Positions 1 to 13,809 of a DNA stretch of 64,000 nt are shown piece after piece (positions within the stretch are counted from its first letter, which is position 1; every line of letters starts with the position of its first letter). The notes below the pieces were generated by a model, which was not told where the DNA came from, made no database searches, and worked only from the letters and a program-made list of their open reading frames with translations. Source of the DNA: an uncultured Fimbriimonadales bacterium (lineage in GTDB: Bacteria > Armatimonadota > Fimbriimonadia > Fimbriimonadales > GBS-DC); the NCBI GenBank assembly GCA_964451985.1, contig CAYVKB010000002.1, forward strand, positions 32,240 to 96,239, in the 5' to 3' direction. A program made the translations under genes and the position numbers.

Positions 1-649
1 CAAGCAGCGAGGTTGCCCCTGCACGGAAGAACTCATTAATAAACCGATACAGCCCGTGCAGCACTAGAAACGCTGCGAACAGCTGCCCCTCGAACTGACG
101 GCGCGACGCCCAATAGGATAGCCCTGCGAAGATGAGTAGGTTCATCAGCGTTGCGTAGAGTTGGGTTGGGTGGACGGCACGTTCATGCCCGGGAAACAGC
201 GCGCCCCACGGTAGGTCGGTGGGCGCGCCATAGCAGCAGCCTGCGCCGAAGCAGCCGATACGGGCAATCGCGTAGCCCAGCGCCAGCGACGGCGCGGCTA
301 AATCGCCCAGCTGCCAAATGGGTATCCGACGCTTGCGAATGAGGTAAATCGCCGTTGCAATCGCCAGCCCAAAGCCGCCAAAGTAGGACATTCCCCCTTC
401 CCACACACGGAAAATGCTCAGCGGGTCGGAGGCGTATTTTGACCAGTAGGTGATGACGAACGCCAGACGCCCGCCCACAATGCCCAGCGCAACGCTCCAG
501 AACGCCACATCCAGCACGTCGTCGGGCTTGACGCCGTAGCGCGGCGCGAGACGCAACGCCCGCCACACGGCAAGCCAGATACCTACCATCCACATGAAGC
601 CGTAGGTATACAGCGTGAACGGTCCGATTTTGATGAGTTCCGGTCTCAT
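1..649 (-). CDS. lgt: prolipoprotein diacylglyceryl transferase (3' end runs off the window)
   Basis: Own translation of the minus strand from ATG at 649: MRPELIKIGPFTLYTYGFMWMVGIWLA...GGRLAFV...WEGGMSYFGGFG...RIGCFGAGCCYG...HPTQLYA. Absent from the ORF track because there is no stop in the window. Its ATG overlaps the lspA stop (ATGA). Confidence 0.9.
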   Translation of the reverse strand, partial: MRPELIKIGPFTLYTYGFMWMVGIWLAVWRALRLAPRYGVKPDDVLDVAFWSVALGIVGGRLAFVITYWSKYASDPLSIFRVWEGGMSYFGGFGLAIATAIYLIRKRRIPIWQLGDLAAPSLALGYAIARIGCFGAGCCYGAPTDLPWGALFPGHERAVHPTQLYATLMNLLIFAGLSYWASRRQFEGQLFAAFLVLHGLYRFINEFFRAGATSLL

Positions 650-3405: not shown

Positions 3406-3957
3406 ATGCTCAACCGAGACCTATCGTTGCAGCAGCTGTTTGGGGATCTGGTGGAACGCGCATTCGCGCTTTCGTTGCGCTGGGATGACCGGCAGGTGAT
3501 GGGCTACTTGACGAACCTGCTGACCGAGTTCGCGCACATCGACAGCCTGTACCGCCTGCGCGATTTGAGTGGACGACCGCTGCAGGAGGTCGCCGAGATG
3601 CTCTATTACGCCGACATTCGGCTGGGCGCGCAGTCATTCTATCAGGAGCGCGAGGTACATCGACATATTGGGGACTTCACGCTGTTTTGGGCGGGCGTCT
3701 ATCCGGAGGCGCTGCCCAAGCTGCGCGCCTCGCTGCGCAAAGACCATCTGATCGACTATGTGAAGCAGGGCAAGGAGTCGTACCGCCTTGTGTCGCTGTT
3801 TGATATTGGCGAGTGGCGCGAGGAAGCCCCGATGTTCCGCCGCCTTTCGGAACACTTCGAGGTGGCGATGCAGGGGCTGCACGCTGTGCGCCACATGTGG
3901 GAGCAGATGGCACAGGAGAGTTTTCAGCGATTCCGCAAGGGCGTCGAGGGCTGGTAA
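3406..3957 (+). CDS. hypothetical soluble protein
   Basis: ORF track 3394..3957. The ATG at 3406 follows AAGAGGTGG by about 9 nt. No family recognised. Confidence 0.5.
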   Translation: MLNRDLSLQQLFGDLVERAFALSLRWDDRQVMGYLTNLLTEFAHIDSLYRLRDLSGRPLQEVAEMLYYADIRLGAQSFYQEREVHRHIGDFTLFWAGVYPEALPKLRASLRKDHLIDYVKQGKESYRLVSLFDIGEWREEAPMFRRLSEHFEVAMQGLHAVRHMWEQMAQESFQRFRKGVEGW

Positions 3958-4031
3958 GGAACGCCTTACAGAGATAAATCTTTCTCAAAACCCAATACCC
4001 CTGTTGTTTATGCTATAATAGGGGTGGAGAT

Positions 4032-4868
4032 ATGACTATGCGACAGCGCGGAGGATTTACCCTGATCGAACTCTTGGTTGTGATTGCAATCATCGCTATT
4101 CTGGCGGCGATTCTATTCCCTGTCTTTGCCCAGGCGCGTGAGAAGGCGCGCCAAACGACCTGTGTAAGCAATCTCAAACAGATAGGCACTGCATTTATGA
4201 TGTACGTCCAGGATTATGACGAAACTTATGCGCCGTGGACGGGTATGTGCCCCGATCCGAATCTACGATGGCAAGTGCGCTATATGTTTCCCGGACTGGT
4301 CGATCCATACATCAAGAACGGTGCGAATGTACAGACAGGCGAGCTGAAAGATGTGTGGGCATGCCCTTCTGCTAAAGCGGGATTGAGCGCGATTAGCAAC
4401 ACCTATGCCTACAACTTCTGGACGTTCGGCGGCTACAGCACTTGTATGTGTATCCCGACCCAGGCGGCGTGTACGCGCGATCCTGCCGCCTTTGCACAGT
4501 TTGCCAACTCTGCCTACAACACGCCCGCGCCGATTGCTTCGATTCAATACCCTGCAGAGACCATCATGCTTTCTGATGGAGCACAGCTGAGTCGCCCGCC
4601 CCAATTCGCGATTGGCTTCAACGGCGATATTTACTTTGTGGGTGTGTGGGGAGCGCACCAGCGTGGCAACGGCAACGTGAATACTACAGCGACCAGCAAT
4701 GCCTTTATTCGCACGCTGATTACAGGCCGCTTGACAAATGTGGTGTATGCTGATGGACATGTGAAAACCACTCCCACTACGCGATGGTACCACCGGAACT
4801 ACGCATCGACGGACGGTTCGTGGCGTGGCGAGGCGACTGATAATCGCTTCTGGGCGCGTGAGTGGTAA
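4032..4868 (+). CDS. prepilin-type N-terminal cleavage/methylation domain protein (DUF1559-like pseudopilin)
   Basis: N-terminus [37 protein letters not shown]-terminal VVYADGHVK motif. Confidence 0.8.
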
Positions 4869-4898
4869 AGTATCGGAGCCTTGTGCAGTTGCTTGCCT

Positions 4899-4925
4899 AC
4901 CCGCTCGATGCCCCATCGAGCGGGT
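4899..4925 (+). terminator. 11-bp stem hairpin after the pseudopilin gene, abutting a TATAAT box (4925-4930) upstream of murA
   Basis: ACCCGCTCGAT-gcccc-ATCGAGCGGGT read directly. The downstream tract is only moderately T-rich. Confidence 0.35.
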
Positions 4926-9708: not shown

Positions 9709-9726
9709 CCACAAGGTATAATCGCC
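9709..9726 (+). repeat. left copy of exact 18-bp direct repeat CCACAAGGTATAATCGCC (contains TATAAT 9717-9722)
   Basis: Read directly. Identical to 11703-11720. Confidence 0.9.
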
Positions 9727-9736
9727 GCGAGACTGT

Positions 9737-10645
9737 ATGCGGAATAGCAAAGCGGCGAAAACCAGAAAACTCATCGCCTTCGGCTGGTACGGCGGCAAGT
9801 TCAGCCATCTGCAGTGGTTACTGCCGTTGCTTCCGCCCACTTATCACTACTGCGAGCCATTCGGCGGCTCAGCGGCAGTGTTGCTAAATCGCATTCCCGC
9901 CCCTGTGGAGACTTACAACGACCTCGACGGAGAAGTGGCGAACTTTTTCCGTGTGCTACGCGACGCCCCTGACGAGCTCATTCGCCGAATCGCACTAACC
10001 CCCTTCTCGCGTGAGGAGCTGCGCCTTGCGTGTAGCGCGGAAAAGTCTAACGACCCCATAGAGCGAGCGCGACGATTTTATGTACGCGCCCGTCAAACGC
10101 GCACGGGGCTTGCTCAGACGGCGACGCCTGGCAGATGGGCATACTGCGTAGGAACCAGCCGCGCGGGTGTTGCAGGCGCGGTCTCTCGCTGGTTCGGCGG
10201 AGTGGAGGCACTGTTCCATATCGCCGACCGATTGCTCGGCGTGCAGATTGAAAGCCTCGACGCTCTGGAAGTGATACGGAAATATGATAGCCCCGACACA
10301 CTGTTTTATTGCGACCCTCCGTATGTGCATGGGGCGCGTGGCGATGTGCATGCCTACGCTTACGAGATGAGCGACGCCGACCATCGGAGGCTGGCAGAGC
10401 TGCTACACACTGTGCAGGGCAAAGTGGCGTTGTCAGGCTATCGCTGTGAGCTAATGGATAGCCTTTACTTGGACTGGTATCGCACTGACGCGCCGCCGCG
10501 CATCTGCCACTCCGTCAAACAAATCCGACAGGAGGTGTTATGGACGAACTACGACCCACAGGAAGCTCTCCAGCAGAACCAGAAAGCCCAGAAGCTATCC
10601 TCGAACGGTGCTACCGCGACGCTGCCGCTCGAGTTGAGCCACTGA
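9737..10645 (+). CDS. Dam-family (D12 class) N6-adenine DNA methyltransferase
   Basis: FGWYGGKFSHLQWLLPLLP, EPFGGSAAVLL, YNDLDGEVANFFRVLRD, FYCDPPYVH. Confidence 0.9.
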   Translation: MRNSKAAKTRKLIAFGWYGGKFSHLQWLLPLLPPTYHYCEPFGGSAAVLLNRIPAPVETYNDLDGEVANFFRVLRDAPDELIRRIALTPFSREELRLACSAEKSNDPIERARRFYVRARQTRTGLAQTATPGRWAYCVGTSRAGVAGAVSRWFGGVEALFHIADRLLGVQIESLDALEVIRKYDSPDTLFYCDPPYVHGARGDVHAYAYEMSDADHRRLAELLHTVQGKVALSGYRCELMDSLYLDWYRTDAPPRICHSVKQIRQEVLWTNYDPQEALQQNQKAQKLSSNGATATLPLELSH

Positions 10646-11691
10646 TTGAAGATGAGCGGCTCAATCTGATTTGCTGCTACCTCACCAATCGTGCCCCCGC
10701 GCGGTTTCTCCTTGCCTGCCTGCTCGCAAAAGTGCATCAACCAACAGTTGACATCCGCAATCCATTCACTGAAATCGGAACAGACGACTGCTACTCAGGT
10801 CGTACTTACGATGAGCGGTATTTGCAAGTGTTTATTATGGAGCATAGTCTGCCACTCAACCGCACAACCGCATTTCTGACTCCTGCCTTTCGCACTTTCA
10901 ACCAACCTCTGCTTGTAGAGACAAAGCTGTCTGGGAAGCCTACCGTACTGTATGCCAGCCTGATTAGCCTGCTCCAAGATATTCAGAAAGGCGTGCATCC
11001 ACCGGAAGATTACCTGAAGGAAGCCTTGAGATTGCTCATCCAGATCCGTGATACCCAACAGCAAGCGATACAGGAGCGCCTTAGCCGCCTTGAGGGTGTT
11101 CACAAAGAACTTGGCACTCAACAAATTTTGGAAATCATATCGAAGCACCTGAAAATGCCACGTTCCAGTCGTCTACCTGTGTTGGTCATTGCCGCAGCTT
11201 ACGACACAACAAAAGAGTCGCTAAGTAAACACTACATGCGCTTACTGCCTCACACTGCTGCTGATAAACCTACTGATGTACTGGGCGACCTTGAAATAGA
11301 ACTATCAGGGCAAGGAATCCCATATATCGTGTACGAAGTCAAGGACAGAGTGATTACTCAGAGCGATATTCAGAATGCGCTTCTCAAGCTAAGCGAGCGC
11401 ACGGAACTACCTGCACAATATGCCTTCGTTGCTACCAAGCCGATACCATCCGCAGTCTATGAATACATCGAATCGATTAATCGCCAGCGGCTCGGTACAG
11501 AACTTCAAGCGTATGACTGTCTGGAATTCCTGAAGTATTTTTTACATTTATTTCACGAAAAGCGAACGCGGTTTCTTGACAGATATAAAGAGTTAGTACT
11601 CAATGAGCCAGCGAGTGCAGTAGCTCAGTCGTTGAAAGAGAAGCTGCTGGAGTTGATTGAGGAAGAGTTAACAGATGTCTCCTCCACTTAG
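10540..11691 (+). CDS. putative type II restriction endonuclease (uncharacterised, PD-(D/E)xK-like)
   Basis: 383-aa ORF directly coupled to the methylase. GGAGG lies 6 nt before ATG 10540. Candidate catalytic motif GDLEIEL...(14 aa)...YEVKD. Visibly AT-richer than its flanks. Confidence 0.5.
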   Translation: MDELRPTGSSPAEPESPEAILERCYRDAAARVEPLIEDERLNLICCYLTNRAPARFLLACLLAKVHQPTVDIRNPFTEIGTDDCYSGRTYDERYLQVFIMEHSLPLNRTTAFLTPAFRTFNQPLLVETKLSGKPTVLYASLISLLQDIQKGVHPPEDYLKEALRLLIQIRDTQQQAIQERLSRLEGVHKELGTQQILEIISKHLKMPRSSRLPVLVIAAAYDTTKESLSKHYMRLLPHTAADKPTDVLGDLEIELSGQGIPYIVYEVKDRVITQSDIQNALLKLSERTELPAQYAFVATKPIPSAVYEYIESINRQRLGTELQAYDCLEFLKYFLHLFHEKRTRFLDRYKELVLNEPASAVAQSLKEKLLELIEEELTDVSST

Positions 11692-11702
11692 TGATTGCTT
11701 TG

Positions 11703-11720
11703 CCACAAGGTATAATCGCC
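11703..11720 (+). repeat. right copy of exact 18-bp direct repeat CCACAAGGTATAATCGCC (contains TATAAT 11711-11716)
   Basis: Read directly. Identical to 9709-9726. Confidence 0.9.
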
Positions 11721-11726
11721 TCCGCT

Positions 11727-13235
11727 ATGGACGCCCGAACAATCTACCAGCACTTGGAGAACTGGCAGAAAGAGACTGCGTTATTAGGTTCTATTGCAGG
11801 CGTATTGGGCTGGGATCAGCGCGTTATGATGCCCGCCAAAGCCGCGCCCCATCGCGCGAACCAGCTAGCGCTGCTGTCGGGGATGATTCACCAGCGCGCC
11901 ACCGACCCGCGCATCGGCGAGTGGCTGCTCGAGCTGGAACAAAGCGACCTGACCCAGCCAGTGGATAGCGTGACCGCTGTGAACATCCGTCAGTGGCGAC
12001 GCGAATATGACAAACTGACCAAACTGCCCACCGAACTGGTGATAGAGTTCACGCGCGTCACCAGCCTCGCCGAAAAGGTGTGGGAGGAAGCACGCGAGGA
12101 GTCGGACTTCAGTCTATTCCAGCCTCATCTGGAGAAGATTGTGAGCCTTGTGCGCGAGATTGCTGAACGGCTGGGGTATGCAACCGAACCTTACGATGCA
12201 CTGTTGGACGAATATGAGCAGGGCATGACCGCGCAGGAGGTGGAGCGGCTCTTCGAGCCGTTGCGCCGCCACACGCCCGAACTGGTCGCGCAGATTCAGA
12301 GCGCCCCGCGCAAGCCGCATACCAGCATCCTGCGCCAACACTACCCTCGCGCCGCGCAGGAAGCCTTCTGCCGCCTCATCGCCGAGTCCATCGGATTCGA
12401 CTGGCAGCGCGGACGGTTGGACCCCACGGTGCATCCGTTCGCTACACGCCTTGCGCCGGGTGATGTGCGCATCACCACGCGCTACTATGAAGATTTCCTG
12501 AACCCGTCGCTGTTCGGCACGATTCACGAGCTGGGGCATGCACTGTACGAGATGGGGCTGCCCGAAGAGCACTGGGGAACTCCGATGGGTGCGTCGACCT
12601 CGCTGGGGATGCACGAGTCGCAATCGCGCATGTGGGAGAACTTCGTGGGGCGCAGCCGCGCGTTTTGGGAGTATTTCTATCCCATCGCGCAGCAGCACTT
12701 CGACACCCTCAAAGACATCTCGCTGGACGACTTTGTGTTTGCTGTGAACGCAGTGCAGCCCTCCACCATTCGCGTGGAAGCCGACGAGGTGACCTATAAC
12801 CTGCACATCATGCTGCGCTTTGAGCTGGAGCTGGCGTTGCTGCGGGGGGAGCTGCAAGTCGCCGACCTGCCCAGCGCGTGGAACGAGCGGTTCAAAGCCT
12901 ATATGGGCTTCACCCCGCCTAACGACGCTGAGGGCGTGCTACAGGATGTTCACTGGTCGGGCGGGATGATTGGCTACTTCCCGACCTATAGTTTAGGCAA
13001 CATCTACGCGGCGCAGCTGTACGAGGCGGCCGAGCGCGACTTGGGCGACCTACACGCGCAGTTCCGTAAGGGCGAGTTTATGCCGTTGCTGGAGTGGCTG
13101 CGTGAGAAGATCCATCAGCAGGGGCAACGCTACTCGGCAAAGGAATTGATTCAGCGCATCACGGGCAACCCGCCCAGTGCTGAGCCGCTGATTGCCTACT
13201 TCCAGCGAAAATTCATGCCCCTGTACGGGCTGTAA
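11727..13235 (+). CDS. carboxypeptidase Taq-type metallopeptidase (M32)
   Basis: HELGHALYE zinc motif, HESQSR, and typical M32 length. Start set at ATG 11727 (MDARTIYQHLENW). Confidence 0.9.
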   Translation: MDARTIYQHLENWQKETALLGSIAGVLGWDQRVMMPAKAAPHRANQLALLSGMIHQRATDPRIGEWLLELEQSDLTQPVDSVTAVNIRQWRREYDKLTKLPTELVIEFTRVTSLAEKVWEEAREESDFSLFQPHLEKIVSLVREIAERLGYATEPYDALLDEYEQGMTAQEVERLFEPLRRHTPELVAQIQSAPRKPHTSILRQHYPRAAQEAFCRLIAESIGFDWQRGRLDPTVHPFATRLAPGDVRITTRYYEDFLNPSLFGTIHELGHALYEMGLPEEHWGTPMGASTSLGMHESQSRMWENFVGRSRAFWEYFYPIAQQHFDTLKDISLDDFVFAVNAVQPSTIRVEADEVTYNLHIMLRFELELALLRGELQVADLPSAWNERFKAYMGFTPPNDAEGVLQDVHWSGGMIGYFPTYSLGNIYAAQLYEAAERDLGDLHAQFRKGEFMPLLEWLREKIHQQGQRYSAKELIQRITGNPPSAEPLIAYFQRKFMPLYGL

Positions 13236-13455: not shown

Positions 13456-13809
13456 ATGGCGCACCCTCGCATCGTGGGGATGGATCCGTACATCGAAGCG
13501 CAAATCACGCCTGAGCGGATGACTTCCACAGTGATACCTCGCATCGTGGGGATGGATCCGTACATCGAGGCGCAAGCGTGGCGTGATTGCCACGCAGAGA
13601 TGATTTCAGGGATACGCGCATCGCTGACAACCCGGTTCGCGCCCAAGTACATTGCACGCATCGAGGAACAAATCTACATCGACGAAGGATATCACGACGC
13701 ACAAATGCGCGACCCTGACATCGCCCTCGAGAGGGTACGCCCCGGTACATCCCACACAGGTGGCGAAGTTGCTCTTGCTATTAAGCCGATTGAACCAGCC
13801 GCTGCCTGA
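13456..13809 (+). pseudogene. truncated DUF4058-family gene with an internal in-frame duplication
   Basis: PRIVGMDPYIEAQ...WRDCHAEMISGIR...PKYIARIEEQIYI...PDIAL matches the DUF4058 N-terminal pattern (GMDPYLE..W.D.H). Only 117 aa. A 39-nt segment is repeated at 13465-13503 and 13537-13575. Confidence 0.6.

Follow-up and report, generated by a model that had tools for sequence, protein, structure and literature searches.

The open reading frame (ORF) at positions 10540 to 11691 (+ strand) of the window, the 64,000-nucleotide stretch of DNA analyzed here, very likely encodes a type II restriction endonuclease (REase) of the SacI/EcoT38I family (Pfam PF09566) that is cognate to the adenine methyltransferase (MTase) encoded beside it; this assessment applies to the identity of the enzyme and excludes its target site. 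The ORF was intact, with an ATG start codon and a predicted product of 383 aa. A Shine-Dalgarno sequence (AGGAGG, positions 10530 to 10535, + strand) was located 4 nt ahead of the ATG, within the 3' end of the MTase gene, and the predicted N terminus, MDELR, was common to the closest relatives. The REase ORF overlapped the upstream, codirectional 302-aa MTase ORF by 106 nt. More than 1,357 homologues of the 383-aa protein were found, and the ORF was therefore considered to be a genuine, conserved gene instead of one arising by chance. No homologue was found in phage records, and an Rfam scan of 9 to 14 kb of the window returned no match. GC content was ~0.50 over positions 10500 to 12000, compared to ~0.61 in the flanks, in agreement with the atypical composition noted in the original prediction for this region.

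An AlphaFold model of the protein (pLDDT, 88.4; pTM, 0.83) contained an alpha-beta-beta-beta-alpha-beta core. Based on the secondary structure of the model, this predicted PD-(D/E)xK nuclease core extended over residues ~212 to 298 (positions 11173 to 11433, + strand) and comprised a helix (residues 212 to 228), three strands (230 to 232, 251 to 255, and 261 to 268), a second helix (274 to 285), and a final strand (293 to 298). The putative catalytic motif (positions 11287 to 11343, + strand) consisted of D250 (11287 to 11289), E266 (11335 to 11337), and K268 (11341 to 11343). These residues were located on predicted strands and, together with 58 other residues, were invariant among 35 homologues (40 to 61% identity); all 61 were retained in the window protein. 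They were exactly the D/E/K residues proposed in the original prediction, in which the quoted peptide, GDLEIELSGQGIPYIVYEVKD, corresponds to positions 11284 to 11346. The same residues aligned with the D...EVK of EcoT38I and with that of a SacI-family enzyme from Halorussus, in a GD...EVKD block. By its modeled core fold and its D/(D/E)-x-K pattern, with the acidic residue opening strand 2 and (D/E)-x-K on strand 3, the protein is predicted to be a member of the PD-(D/E)xK superfamily, as had been suggested for a protein of restriction endonuclease type. A helical N-terminal region had also been anticipated, and model helices, invariant columns, and the full-length alignment with EcoT38I delimited such a domain ahead of the core, at residues ~17 to 228 (positions 10588 to 11223, + strand). 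Strictly conserved blocks within this domain included R55-K64, D71/R73/P75/T77, SGRxYDE (residues 86 to 92), TTAFLTP (109 to 115), and SRLPVL (210 to 215), and the domain is presumed to be the DNA-recognition and dimerization module.

The structure search that had been called for to check the protein returned a restriction endonuclease along its full length. In Foldseek comparisons, EcoT38I in complex with DNA (PDB 7EDB, chain 7EDB_A) was the top PDB fold match of the REase model and the sole strong one (379 columns; E, 1.2e-10; TM, 0.67/0.72), followed by other PD-(D/E)xK nucleases (Nt.BspD6I, Cap4, and MspJI). The match extended over both domains of EcoT38I (PDB 7EDB/7E8R) with the D...E-x-K block aligned, at only 15% sequence identity. 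EcoT38I was also the top PDB sequence-profile match, with the catalytic block aligned, at a marginal E value of 0.044. Direct scans of the 383-aa protein against Pfam, NCBIfam, PADLOC, PHROGs, and PDB sequences produced nothing significant, and it did not match the local PF09566.16 model. Because of this missing PF09566.16 match and the marginal PDB profile match, the family placement rests on fold and transitive homology; the family was reached through homologues, fold, and profiles and not through direct scans of the 383-aa protein.

Several intermediates connected the window protein to PF09566 (RE_SacI/RE_SacI_N), the family of SacI (GAGCT^C), and both EcoT38I and the window REase fall in or next to this family. 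A fragment of EcoT38I scored 72.9 bits on PF09566, and orthologues of the window REase scored 13.5 to 23.7 bits against a cutoff of 19.3. Two orthologues (P0026 and P0074) and a bridging relative (P0162, 35.4 bits) were above the cutoff, and the bridging relative was matched by the REase-family profile at an E value of 3.7e-62. A protein that was 100% identical to the window REase over its 319 aa (P0001) carried a precomputed PF09566.18 tag, as did nearly all listed homologues. BLASTP aligned the window REase, motifs included, with an Agrobacterium enzyme (E, 1e-11) that scored 24.7 bits on PF09566 and with the Halorussus enzyme (E, 5e-6), which scored 176.8 bits. Orthologues were already labeled "restriction endonuclease, SacI family" by RefSeq/PGAP. 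The original prediction had treated the protein as unassignable to a named family and as a candidate new enzyme; neither part held, since fold, profile, and bridging homologues place it in the SacI/EcoT38I family and its orthologues carry the SacI-family label. Very probably, the protein is an ordinary member of that already-named type II restriction endonuclease family. The value of this result is mainly corrective, in that a protein flagged as unassignable and possibly new is moved to a named family with a solved structure and identified catalytic residues. Limited literature searches returned nothing relevant on the "SacI family," no structure paper for EcoT38I, and no cleavage or methylation data for any member of the REase family.

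The linkage of the REase and MTase genes was obligate. Genes for MTase orthologues (57 to 77% identity) immediately preceded that of the REase at 78 of 80 loci from many phyla, and the two loci without an upstream MTase were contig-edge truncations. Gene spacing in the other loci ranged from -93 to +119 nt, always on the same strand, with overlap or close spacing conserved. A third recurring gene (C-protein or recombinase) was sought at the REase loci, and none was found. Separate, adjacent R and M genes with linkage conserved across hosts correspond to the pattern of type II (IIP) restriction-modification (R-M) systems, and the coupling to an adenine MTase proposed in the original prediction was upheld. 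This adenine-MTase-linked branch was present in at least 525 species, and the cassette was also carried on mobilizable and conjugative plasmids. The branch represents a very large cross-phylum SacI-family clade tied to an adenine and not a cytosine methylase, with methylase type being swapped within the family.

Many REase orthologues were misnamed as methyltransferases in public records, including "DNA methyltransferase," "DNA adenine methylase" (JGI), and "D12 class N6 adenine-specific DNA methyltransferase (x2)" (Calothrix NIES-4101). Were these names taken literally, the 383-aa protein would itself be a DNA methyltransferase, which is extremely improbable given that Pfam, NCBIfam, and PADLOC detected no MTase domain in it or its orthologues, that its modeled fold matches a restriction endonuclease, and that a separate bona fide MTase always adjoins it. 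The methyltransferase names are most likely spillover from the neighboring gene.

The upstream gene (positions 9737 to 10645, + strand) encodes the cognate M protein, a D12-class (alpha) N6-adenine DNA MTase of 302 aa that matched Pfam PF02086 (E, 4.8e-20) and PADLOC MTase_II (E, 7e-53). Motif I, CEPFGGSAA, was located at positions 9851 to 9877 (EPFGGSAA, 9854 to 9877) and motif IV, DPPY, at positions 10313 to 10324. The SAM-binding EPFGGSAA and the catalytic DPPY were intact in the window MTase and invariant among its orthologues. The D12-class fold, the motif order, and the FGG and DPPY motifs are common to the GATC MTases Dam, DpnM, and T4 Dam, whereas relatedness to solved Dam-family structures reached just E values of 6e-9 to 6.5e-5. 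Scores on Dam models were 65.6 bits for TIGR00571 (cutoff, 114.85) and 30.7 bits for PRK10904 (cutoff, 441). The Dam GATC-contact hairpin signature was absent from the window MTase, which has GLAQTATPGRWAYC in comparison to GLxRxNxxxxFNVPxG in Dam and DpnM. With scores below both cutoffs and a different hairpin, the sequence of the partner MTase appears to place it outside the Dam (GATC) family, and the earlier caution that a Dam-class methylase need not mean GATC was well founded.

A perfect 18-bp direct repeat, CCACAAGGTATAATCGCC, flanked the cassette on both sides. The left copy was at positions 9709 to 9726 (+ strand), and the right copy was at positions 11703 to 11720 (+ strand), 11 nt past the REase stop codon and just ahead of the probable ATG (11727) of an M32 carboxypeptidase gene. 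The repeat occurred twice in the 64 kb, with 0 copies expected from shuffled sequences. The left copy contained a -10-like hexamer, TATAAT (positions 9716 to 9721), 15 nt ahead of the MTase ATG; in a scan for sigma-70 promoters and terminators, this hexamer was not called because a -35 match was missing, and no terminator was detected. Flanking direct repeats of 26, 29, 35, and 89 bp were found in four other hosts, and ~64 of 70 loci were without a long flanking repeat. Between two loci of one Scytonematopsis genome, homology was limited to the 2.2-kb cassette, and three near-identical REase proteins were encoded in that genome. Insertion of R-M systems with long target duplication is a published pattern, for which a criterion of 30 bp was applied (PMC2853133). 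A bare R and M unit without a recombinase, host-specific direct repeats, and deviant GC content were features of that pattern also present here, while the 18-bp repeat of the window is below the 30-bp criterion. The 18-bp repeat on either side of the 2-kb cassette fits insertion with target duplication as the presumed mechanism.

These features also bear on whether the REase serves mainly in cassette mobility or postsegregational killing, as part of a selfish addiction module, and not in phage defense. Host-specific direct repeats of 18 to 89 bp flanking the bare M-R unit in five loci without a recombinase, the sharing of the cassette alone between the Scytonematopsis loci and the three near-identical REase proteins of that genome, carriage on mobilizable and conjugative plasmids, and the match to the published insertion pattern (PMC2853133) are consistent with such a role. 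It was nevertheless judged unlikely, as mobility or addiction would be compatible with normal restriction function and not exclusive of it, any link of the REase to insertion is putative, and most loci (~64 of 70) were missing a long flanking repeat. The cassette loci add several clear cases of apparent R-M insertion accompanied by duplication of the target, and they could be used as a test system for a poorly understood mobility mechanism.

From the arrangement of the genes, the family and fold of the REase with its conserved catalytic residues, the linkage of M to R, and the repeats at both ends, bases 9737 to 11691 very probably constitute a two-gene type IIP R-M cassette that was probably acquired horizontally as a self-contained 2-kb unit and inserted upstream of the carboxypeptidase gene with duplication of an 18-bp target. 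The M and R genes are expected to be cotranscribed, with M first, because R starts inside the end of M behind its own strong ribosome-binding site. The D12 MTase would methylate adenine N6 within a short site, probably a palindrome, and thereby protect host DNA. The REase would most likely act as a homodimer, like EcoT38I, with D250, E266, and K268 coordinating Mg2+ to cut both strands of unmethylated sites. The target is predicted not to be GATC; the leading, tentative candidate is GAGCTC, with G(m6A)GCTC as its protected form.

In a syntenic sister genome (L009), a deletion of ~1.07 kb had eliminated the bulk of M along with ~74 codons at the start of R; activity in the window host is therefore not guaranteed. 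R-M systems frequently lose their activity once acquired, and together with the sister deletion, which spans M and the start of R, this would be in keeping with an inactive or decaying REase remnant and an MTase that acts as a solitary methylase. That state was considered improbable for the window copy, in which neither ORF was truncated, the 61 family-invariant residues (D250, E266, and K268 among them) were all present, and the REase Shine-Dalgarno sequence and start codon and the MTase catalytic motifs were intact.

Recognition of GAGCTC or GRGCYC, with cleavage to 4-nt 3' overhangs, would be expected of a SacI/EcoT38I-family enzyme, and the hints of this for the window REase were indirect. 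EcoT38I cuts at GRGCY^C, and the N6-adenine MTase of the window could not protect GGGCCC-type GRGCYC sites. Canonical SacI-type systems have a C5-cytosine MTase (M.SacI is of this type), whereas the window clade has a D12 N6-adenine MTase, found in 78 of the 80 loci, and a fixed, overlapping M-then-R order. C5 partners occurred in other branches, in a Haladaptatus locus and in a Staphylococcus epidermidis fusion. The GAGCTC-specific M.Sgr13350I is likewise a C5-cytosine MTase (PMC11275837), and a literature search for GAGCTC methylomes returned m5C examples only.

Orthologues of the window MTase (56 to 64% identity) with a conserved recognition hairpin were also partners of the Agrobacterium and Halorussus SacI-family REases. 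The Halorussus caseinilyticus plasmid pair (WP_276282656/WP_276282685) had the gene order of the window and an MTase that was 56.5% identical to that of the window, with the same recognition hairpin. Its REase, a canonical PF09566 member (176.8 bits), was just 24% identical to the window REase and was 45.7% identical to the Haladaptatus enzyme, whose partner is a C5 MTase, the arrangement of canonical SacI systems. An adjacent REase was sought for a Salinibaculum MTase (47.6% identical), and none was found. GAGCTC was taken as the best guess because orthologous MTases also occur alongside a canonical SacI-family enzyme from a haloarchaeon; this assignment is unproven and tentative, with a likelihood somewhat short of even. 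For 81 pooled host sequences, two of the three background models ranked GAGCTC first for depletion among hexamer palindromes that contain adenine, and under order-1, -3, and -4 models it ranked high alongside GGGCCC, GGCGCC, and CTCGAG. In a pooled maximal-order Markov analysis, all palindromes were below expectation. Palindrome avoidance was nonspecific and inconsistent between phyla and replicons, with plasmids being equivocal. Five GAGCTC sites were present in the window, one of them inside the M gene, and GAGCTC depletion was not seen in the Latescibacterota loci or the Agrobacterium plasmid.

That the adenine-MTase clade has the SacI/EcoT38I fold and reads a site other than GAGCTC or GRGCYC was given close to an even chance, an alternative that opposes the proposed site and not the identity of the REase. 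The window REase shares 15% identity with EcoT38I and 24% with the Agrobacterium and Halorussus enzymes, and a shared site is not implied between REases of 24% identity. A distinct set of N-terminal residues is invariant in the clade, its partner MTase lies outside the C5 class found in known GAGCTC systems, and GAGCTC was undepleted in the Latescibacterota loci and on the Agrobacterium plasmid. ATGCAT (an NsiI/AvaIII-like site) was tried as a candidate, as it was absent from the 64-kb window, where 8 to 10 sites were expected; it was rejected, with observed/expected ratios across hosts (0.57 to 0.60) showing no special depletion. Against a different site, each of the three REase branches, the canonical SacI-family enzyme among them, is served by orthologous MTases in which the recognition hairpin is conserved, and GAGCTC was among the most depleted palindromes overall. 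A broader proposal, that the adenine-MTase branch either reads a site undescribed for the fold or represents the first example of a GAGCTC system with m6A protection and that the bare 2-kb M-R cassette may in addition move itself, driven by its nuclease, with target duplications of 18 to 89 bp and no recombinase, is speculative and rather doubtful as a whole. A different site, if true, would be a specificity new for the SacI/EcoT38I family on a known scaffold; GAGCTC, if true, would yield m6A-protected SacI isoschizomers, some of them from thermophile-related lineages.

The restriction endonuclease (REase) ORF extended from position 10540 to 11691 on the forward strand (ATG start, 383 amino acids), exactly as originally predicted, and shared 106 nt with the 3′ end of an ORF encoding a 302-amino-acid D12-class N6-adenine methyltransferase (MTase; 9737 to 10645, forward strand). 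The MTase ORF matched Pfam PF02086 (4.8e-20) and PADLOC MTase_II (7.1e-53), and its EPFGGSAA and DPPY motifs were both intact. The REase start codon at 10540 is credible because a Shine-Dalgarno sequence (AGGAGG, 10530 to 10535, forward strand) lies 4 nt 5′ of the ATG and the N terminus MDELR is common to the protein and its closest relatives. The gene overlap and internal Shine-Dalgarno sequence would favor cotranscription, with the MTase made first. The atypical composition that had been proposed was also found, with a GC content of ~0.50 across the REase gene versus ~0.61 in its flanks.

Alignment of 35 homologues (40 to 61% identity to the window protein) contained 61 invariant columns, including H238, D242, G249-D250, E266, and K268, as well as N-terminal blocks R55...K64, D71/R73/P75/T77, SGRxYDE, TTAFLTP, and SRLPVL. 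An AlphaFold2 model built on this alignment was confident (mean pLDDT, 88.4; pTM, 0.83) and comprised a helical domain (residues ~17 to 228), a canonical alpha-beta-beta-beta-alpha-beta nuclease core (helix 212 to 228; strands 230 to 232, 251 to 255, and 261 to 268; helix 274 to 285; strand 293 to 298), and C-terminal helices. The helical N-terminal region and the PD-(D/E)xK residues suggested earlier were both borne out: D250 lies where the second strand begins, and the third strand carries E266 and K268. The nuclease reading of the protein, including its exact catalytic motif, is supported.

The protein had been described as a candidate new enzyme that could not be assigned to a named family. 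That difficulty was genuine, since no significant match came from direct scans against Pfam, NCBIfam, PADLOC, PHROGs, and PDB sequences, and the sequence alone did not reach the cutoff of PF09566.16 (RE_SacI), an older version of the Pfam model. A homologue search nevertheless returned >1,357 proteins, nearly all carrying a precomputed PF09566 tag and a few named “restriction endonuclease, SacI family,” a label already given to orthologues by RefSeq/PGAP. Orthologues scored 13.5 to 23.7 bits on the local PF09566.16 model (cutoff, 19.3 bits), always in the C-terminal half of the profile; the link is real yet marginal at such distance. Foldseek comparison of the model with the PDB produced a single outstanding match, itself a restriction endonuclease, EcoT38I bound to DNA (7EDB_A; E = 1.2e-10; TM, 0.67/0.72; 379 aligned columns; 15% identity); all other matches had E values of 0.01 or worse. 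EcoT38I also ranked first when the family profile was compared with PDB sequences (E = 0.044), in an alignment pairing GD...YEMK of the window family with LDIDV...IEVK of EcoT38I. The matched EcoT38I fragment scored 72.9 bits on PF09566 (E = 5.5e-20), and the structure therefore itself belongs to the SacI family. When the profile search was made exhaustive, it yielded 857 clusters at 50% identity, among them a divergent full-length relative (P0162) that matched the family profile (E = 3.7e-62) and passed the PF09566 cutoff (35.4 bits, profile positions 13 to 263). BLASTP aligned the window REase with two enzymes of the SacI family, one from Agrobacterium (E = 1e-11; 24% identity; 24.7 bits on PF09566) and one from Halorussus (E = 5e-6; 176.8 bits on PF09566). 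Membership in the SacI/EcoT38I family is established by the EcoT38I fold match and these bridging homologues; the protein represents no novel enzyme type but belongs to a large clade that is already automatically annotated.

The REase family was found in at least 525 species-representative genomes from Armatimonadota, Chloroflexota, Cyanobacteriota, Latescibacterota, Acidobacteriota, Planctomycetota, Proteobacteria, and other phyla, on mobilizable and conjugative plasmids, and on a haloarchaeal plasmid; no homologue was detected in the phage records searched. In line with the proposed coupling to an adenine methylase, an MTase orthologue (57 to 77% identity) lay directly upstream on the same strand in 78 of 80 fetched loci, at distances from a 93-nt overlap to a 119-nt spacing, and the two remaining loci were truncated at a contig end. 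No other gene recurred beside the pair in the fetched loci. This obligate linkage, MTase first, and the better conservation of the MTase than of the nuclease give the pair the look of a type II restriction-modification (R-M) system. Many public records name REase orthologues “DNA adenine methylase,” “DNA methyltransferase,” or “D12 class N6 adenine-specific DNA methyltransferase” (for example, Calothrix sp. NIES-4101 plasmid AP018278.1, 43985 to 45052); no MTase domain was detectable in these proteins, and the names are probably annotation spillover from the adjacent gene.

The clade is distinguished by its adenine, not cytosine, methylase partner: canonical GAGCTC/SacI-type systems have a C5-cytosine MTase, whereas the window clade has a D12 N6-adenine MTase. 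M.SacI is reportedly a C5 MTase. The C5 arrangement is known for GAGCTC systems from M.Sgr13350I (PMC11275837). A clear case of MTase class swap within one REase family was provided by two haloarchaeal nucleases sharing 45.7% identity, that of Haladaptatus being paired with a convergent C5-cytosine MTase (L088, 2504 to 5090) and that of Halorussus with a codirectional D12 adenine MTase (L086, 4025 to 6102). Orthologous adenine MTases partner three diverged REase branches (window, Agrobacterium, and canonical Halorussus types).

The original caution that a Dam-class methylase need not imply GATC was well placed. The MTase is not an orthodox Dam: it scored 65.6 bits on TIGR00571 (cutoff, 114.85) and was only weakly related to DpnM and EcoDam (E = 6e-9 to 6.5e-5). 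In place of the GATC-reading Dam/DpnM hairpin GLxRxN...FNVPxG it carries GLAQTATPGRWAYC, which is strictly conserved in bacterial and archaeal orthologues, and all orthologues probably share one non-GATC site. Adenine methylation is able to shield GAGCTC, though not every GRGCYC site. Because MTase orthologues serve the canonical Halorussus REase, kin of the C5-paired Haladaptatus enzyme, GAGCTC, methylated as G(m6A)GCTC, is our best guess for the site, a tentative one with somewhat less than an even chance of being correct. GAGCTC was the most depleted adenine-containing hexamer palindrome in 81 pooled host sequences under both order-1 and order-3 models (observed/expected, 0.20 and 0.34) and was missing from 54 loci versus 24 expected; however, other GC-rich palindromes were similarly depleted, phyla disagreed, and plasmids were equivocal. 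ATGCAT, also considered as the site, was absent from the 64-kb window (8 to 10 expected) and gained no support across hosts. GGCGCC (8 versus 58 to 101 expected) and GATC (76 versus ~232 expected from base composition) were also strongly underrepresented in the window, and this palindrome shortage suggests past or present exposure of the host to other R-M systems. Most likely, by analogy with known family members, the MTase would methylate adenine within the recognition site, and the nuclease, which probably acts as a homodimer in the manner of EcoT38I, would cut unmethylated sites through a D250/E266/K268 metal site.

The cassette formed by the two genes is bracketed by an 18-bp perfect direct repeat, CCACAAGGTATAATCGCC (9709 to 9726 and 11703 to 11720; 0 expected by chance), 10 nt before the MTase start and 11 nt after the REase stop. 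The repeat includes TATAAT, and its duplication would supply a −10 element to both the cassette and the downstream M32 carboxypeptidase gene. The carboxypeptidase ORF as listed begins with GTG at 11691, where the REase stop codon lies, and runs across the right-hand repeat; the ATG at 11727, 11 nt past the TATAAT, is the likelier start. Perfect host-specific repeats (89, 35, 29, and 26 bp) flanked the cassette in four other hosts (L060, 4008/6279; L042, 3970/6210; L003, 3910/6139; L057, 4041/6175), and repeats in displaced control windows never exceeded 15 bp. Repeats of 18 to 89 bp are consistent with insertion of an R-M unit that duplicates a long target stretch of variable length (PMC2853133). 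Two loci in one Scytonematopsis contorta genome (L005, 3940 to 6165; L007, 3931 to 6166) had in common only 2,238 bp (93% identity) corresponding to the two genes, with unrelated flanks, which argues that the spreading unit is the bare two-gene cassette. Cassette-only homology was also noted for L041/L050 and L008/L010. From the S. contorta genome come P0040, P0055, and P0056, REase proteins that are nearly identical to one another.

In a sister Fimbriimonadales MAG (L009, CAYYCA010000022.1), the locus is syntenic with the window, with identities of 90% for M32 carboxypeptidase and 71% for AnmK and a shared membrane ORF upstream. The cassette there (3826 to 4903) had a ~1.07-kb deletion across the gene junction, so that REase codon ~74 directly follows MTase codon ~61, which reflects either decay of the R-M system or an artifact of MAG assembly. 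Between the carboxypeptidase and anmK genes of the window lies an intergenic 39-nt direct repeat (13465 to 13503 and 13537 to 13575; 97% identical; 33-nt spacer), without a further copy in the window, a copy in L009, or an Rfam match; its geometry is CRISPR-like, though with two copies only.

Among plasmids, a 706-amino-acid “DNA cytosine methyltransferase” of Staphylococcus epidermidis NZ_CP093209.1 (L082, 2840 to 4960) carries a C5 MTase domain in residues 1 to 324 and a C-terminal half that distantly resembles the REase of the window (21.5% identity, E = 9e-7), and may be a single-chain fusion of MTase and REase of the SacI lineage. The SacI-family enzyme of Agrobacterium pAtCFBP6626a (L085, 4805 to 5908), whose cassette adjoins three transposase genes, reads E-V-T-E-R in the motif aligned to E266-x-K268, with Thr replacing the catalytic Lys; either the motif varies here or the enzyme is inactive. 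On the 21.9-kb mobilizable plasmid pKAM339_3 of Aeromonas caviae (L081, 866 to 6731), the cassette adjoins a class 1 integron with blaGES-24 and aac(6′)-Ib and is directly followed by a DNA-3-methyladenine glycosylase 2 family gene; a Comamonas plasmid bears an identically scoring copy of this cassette.
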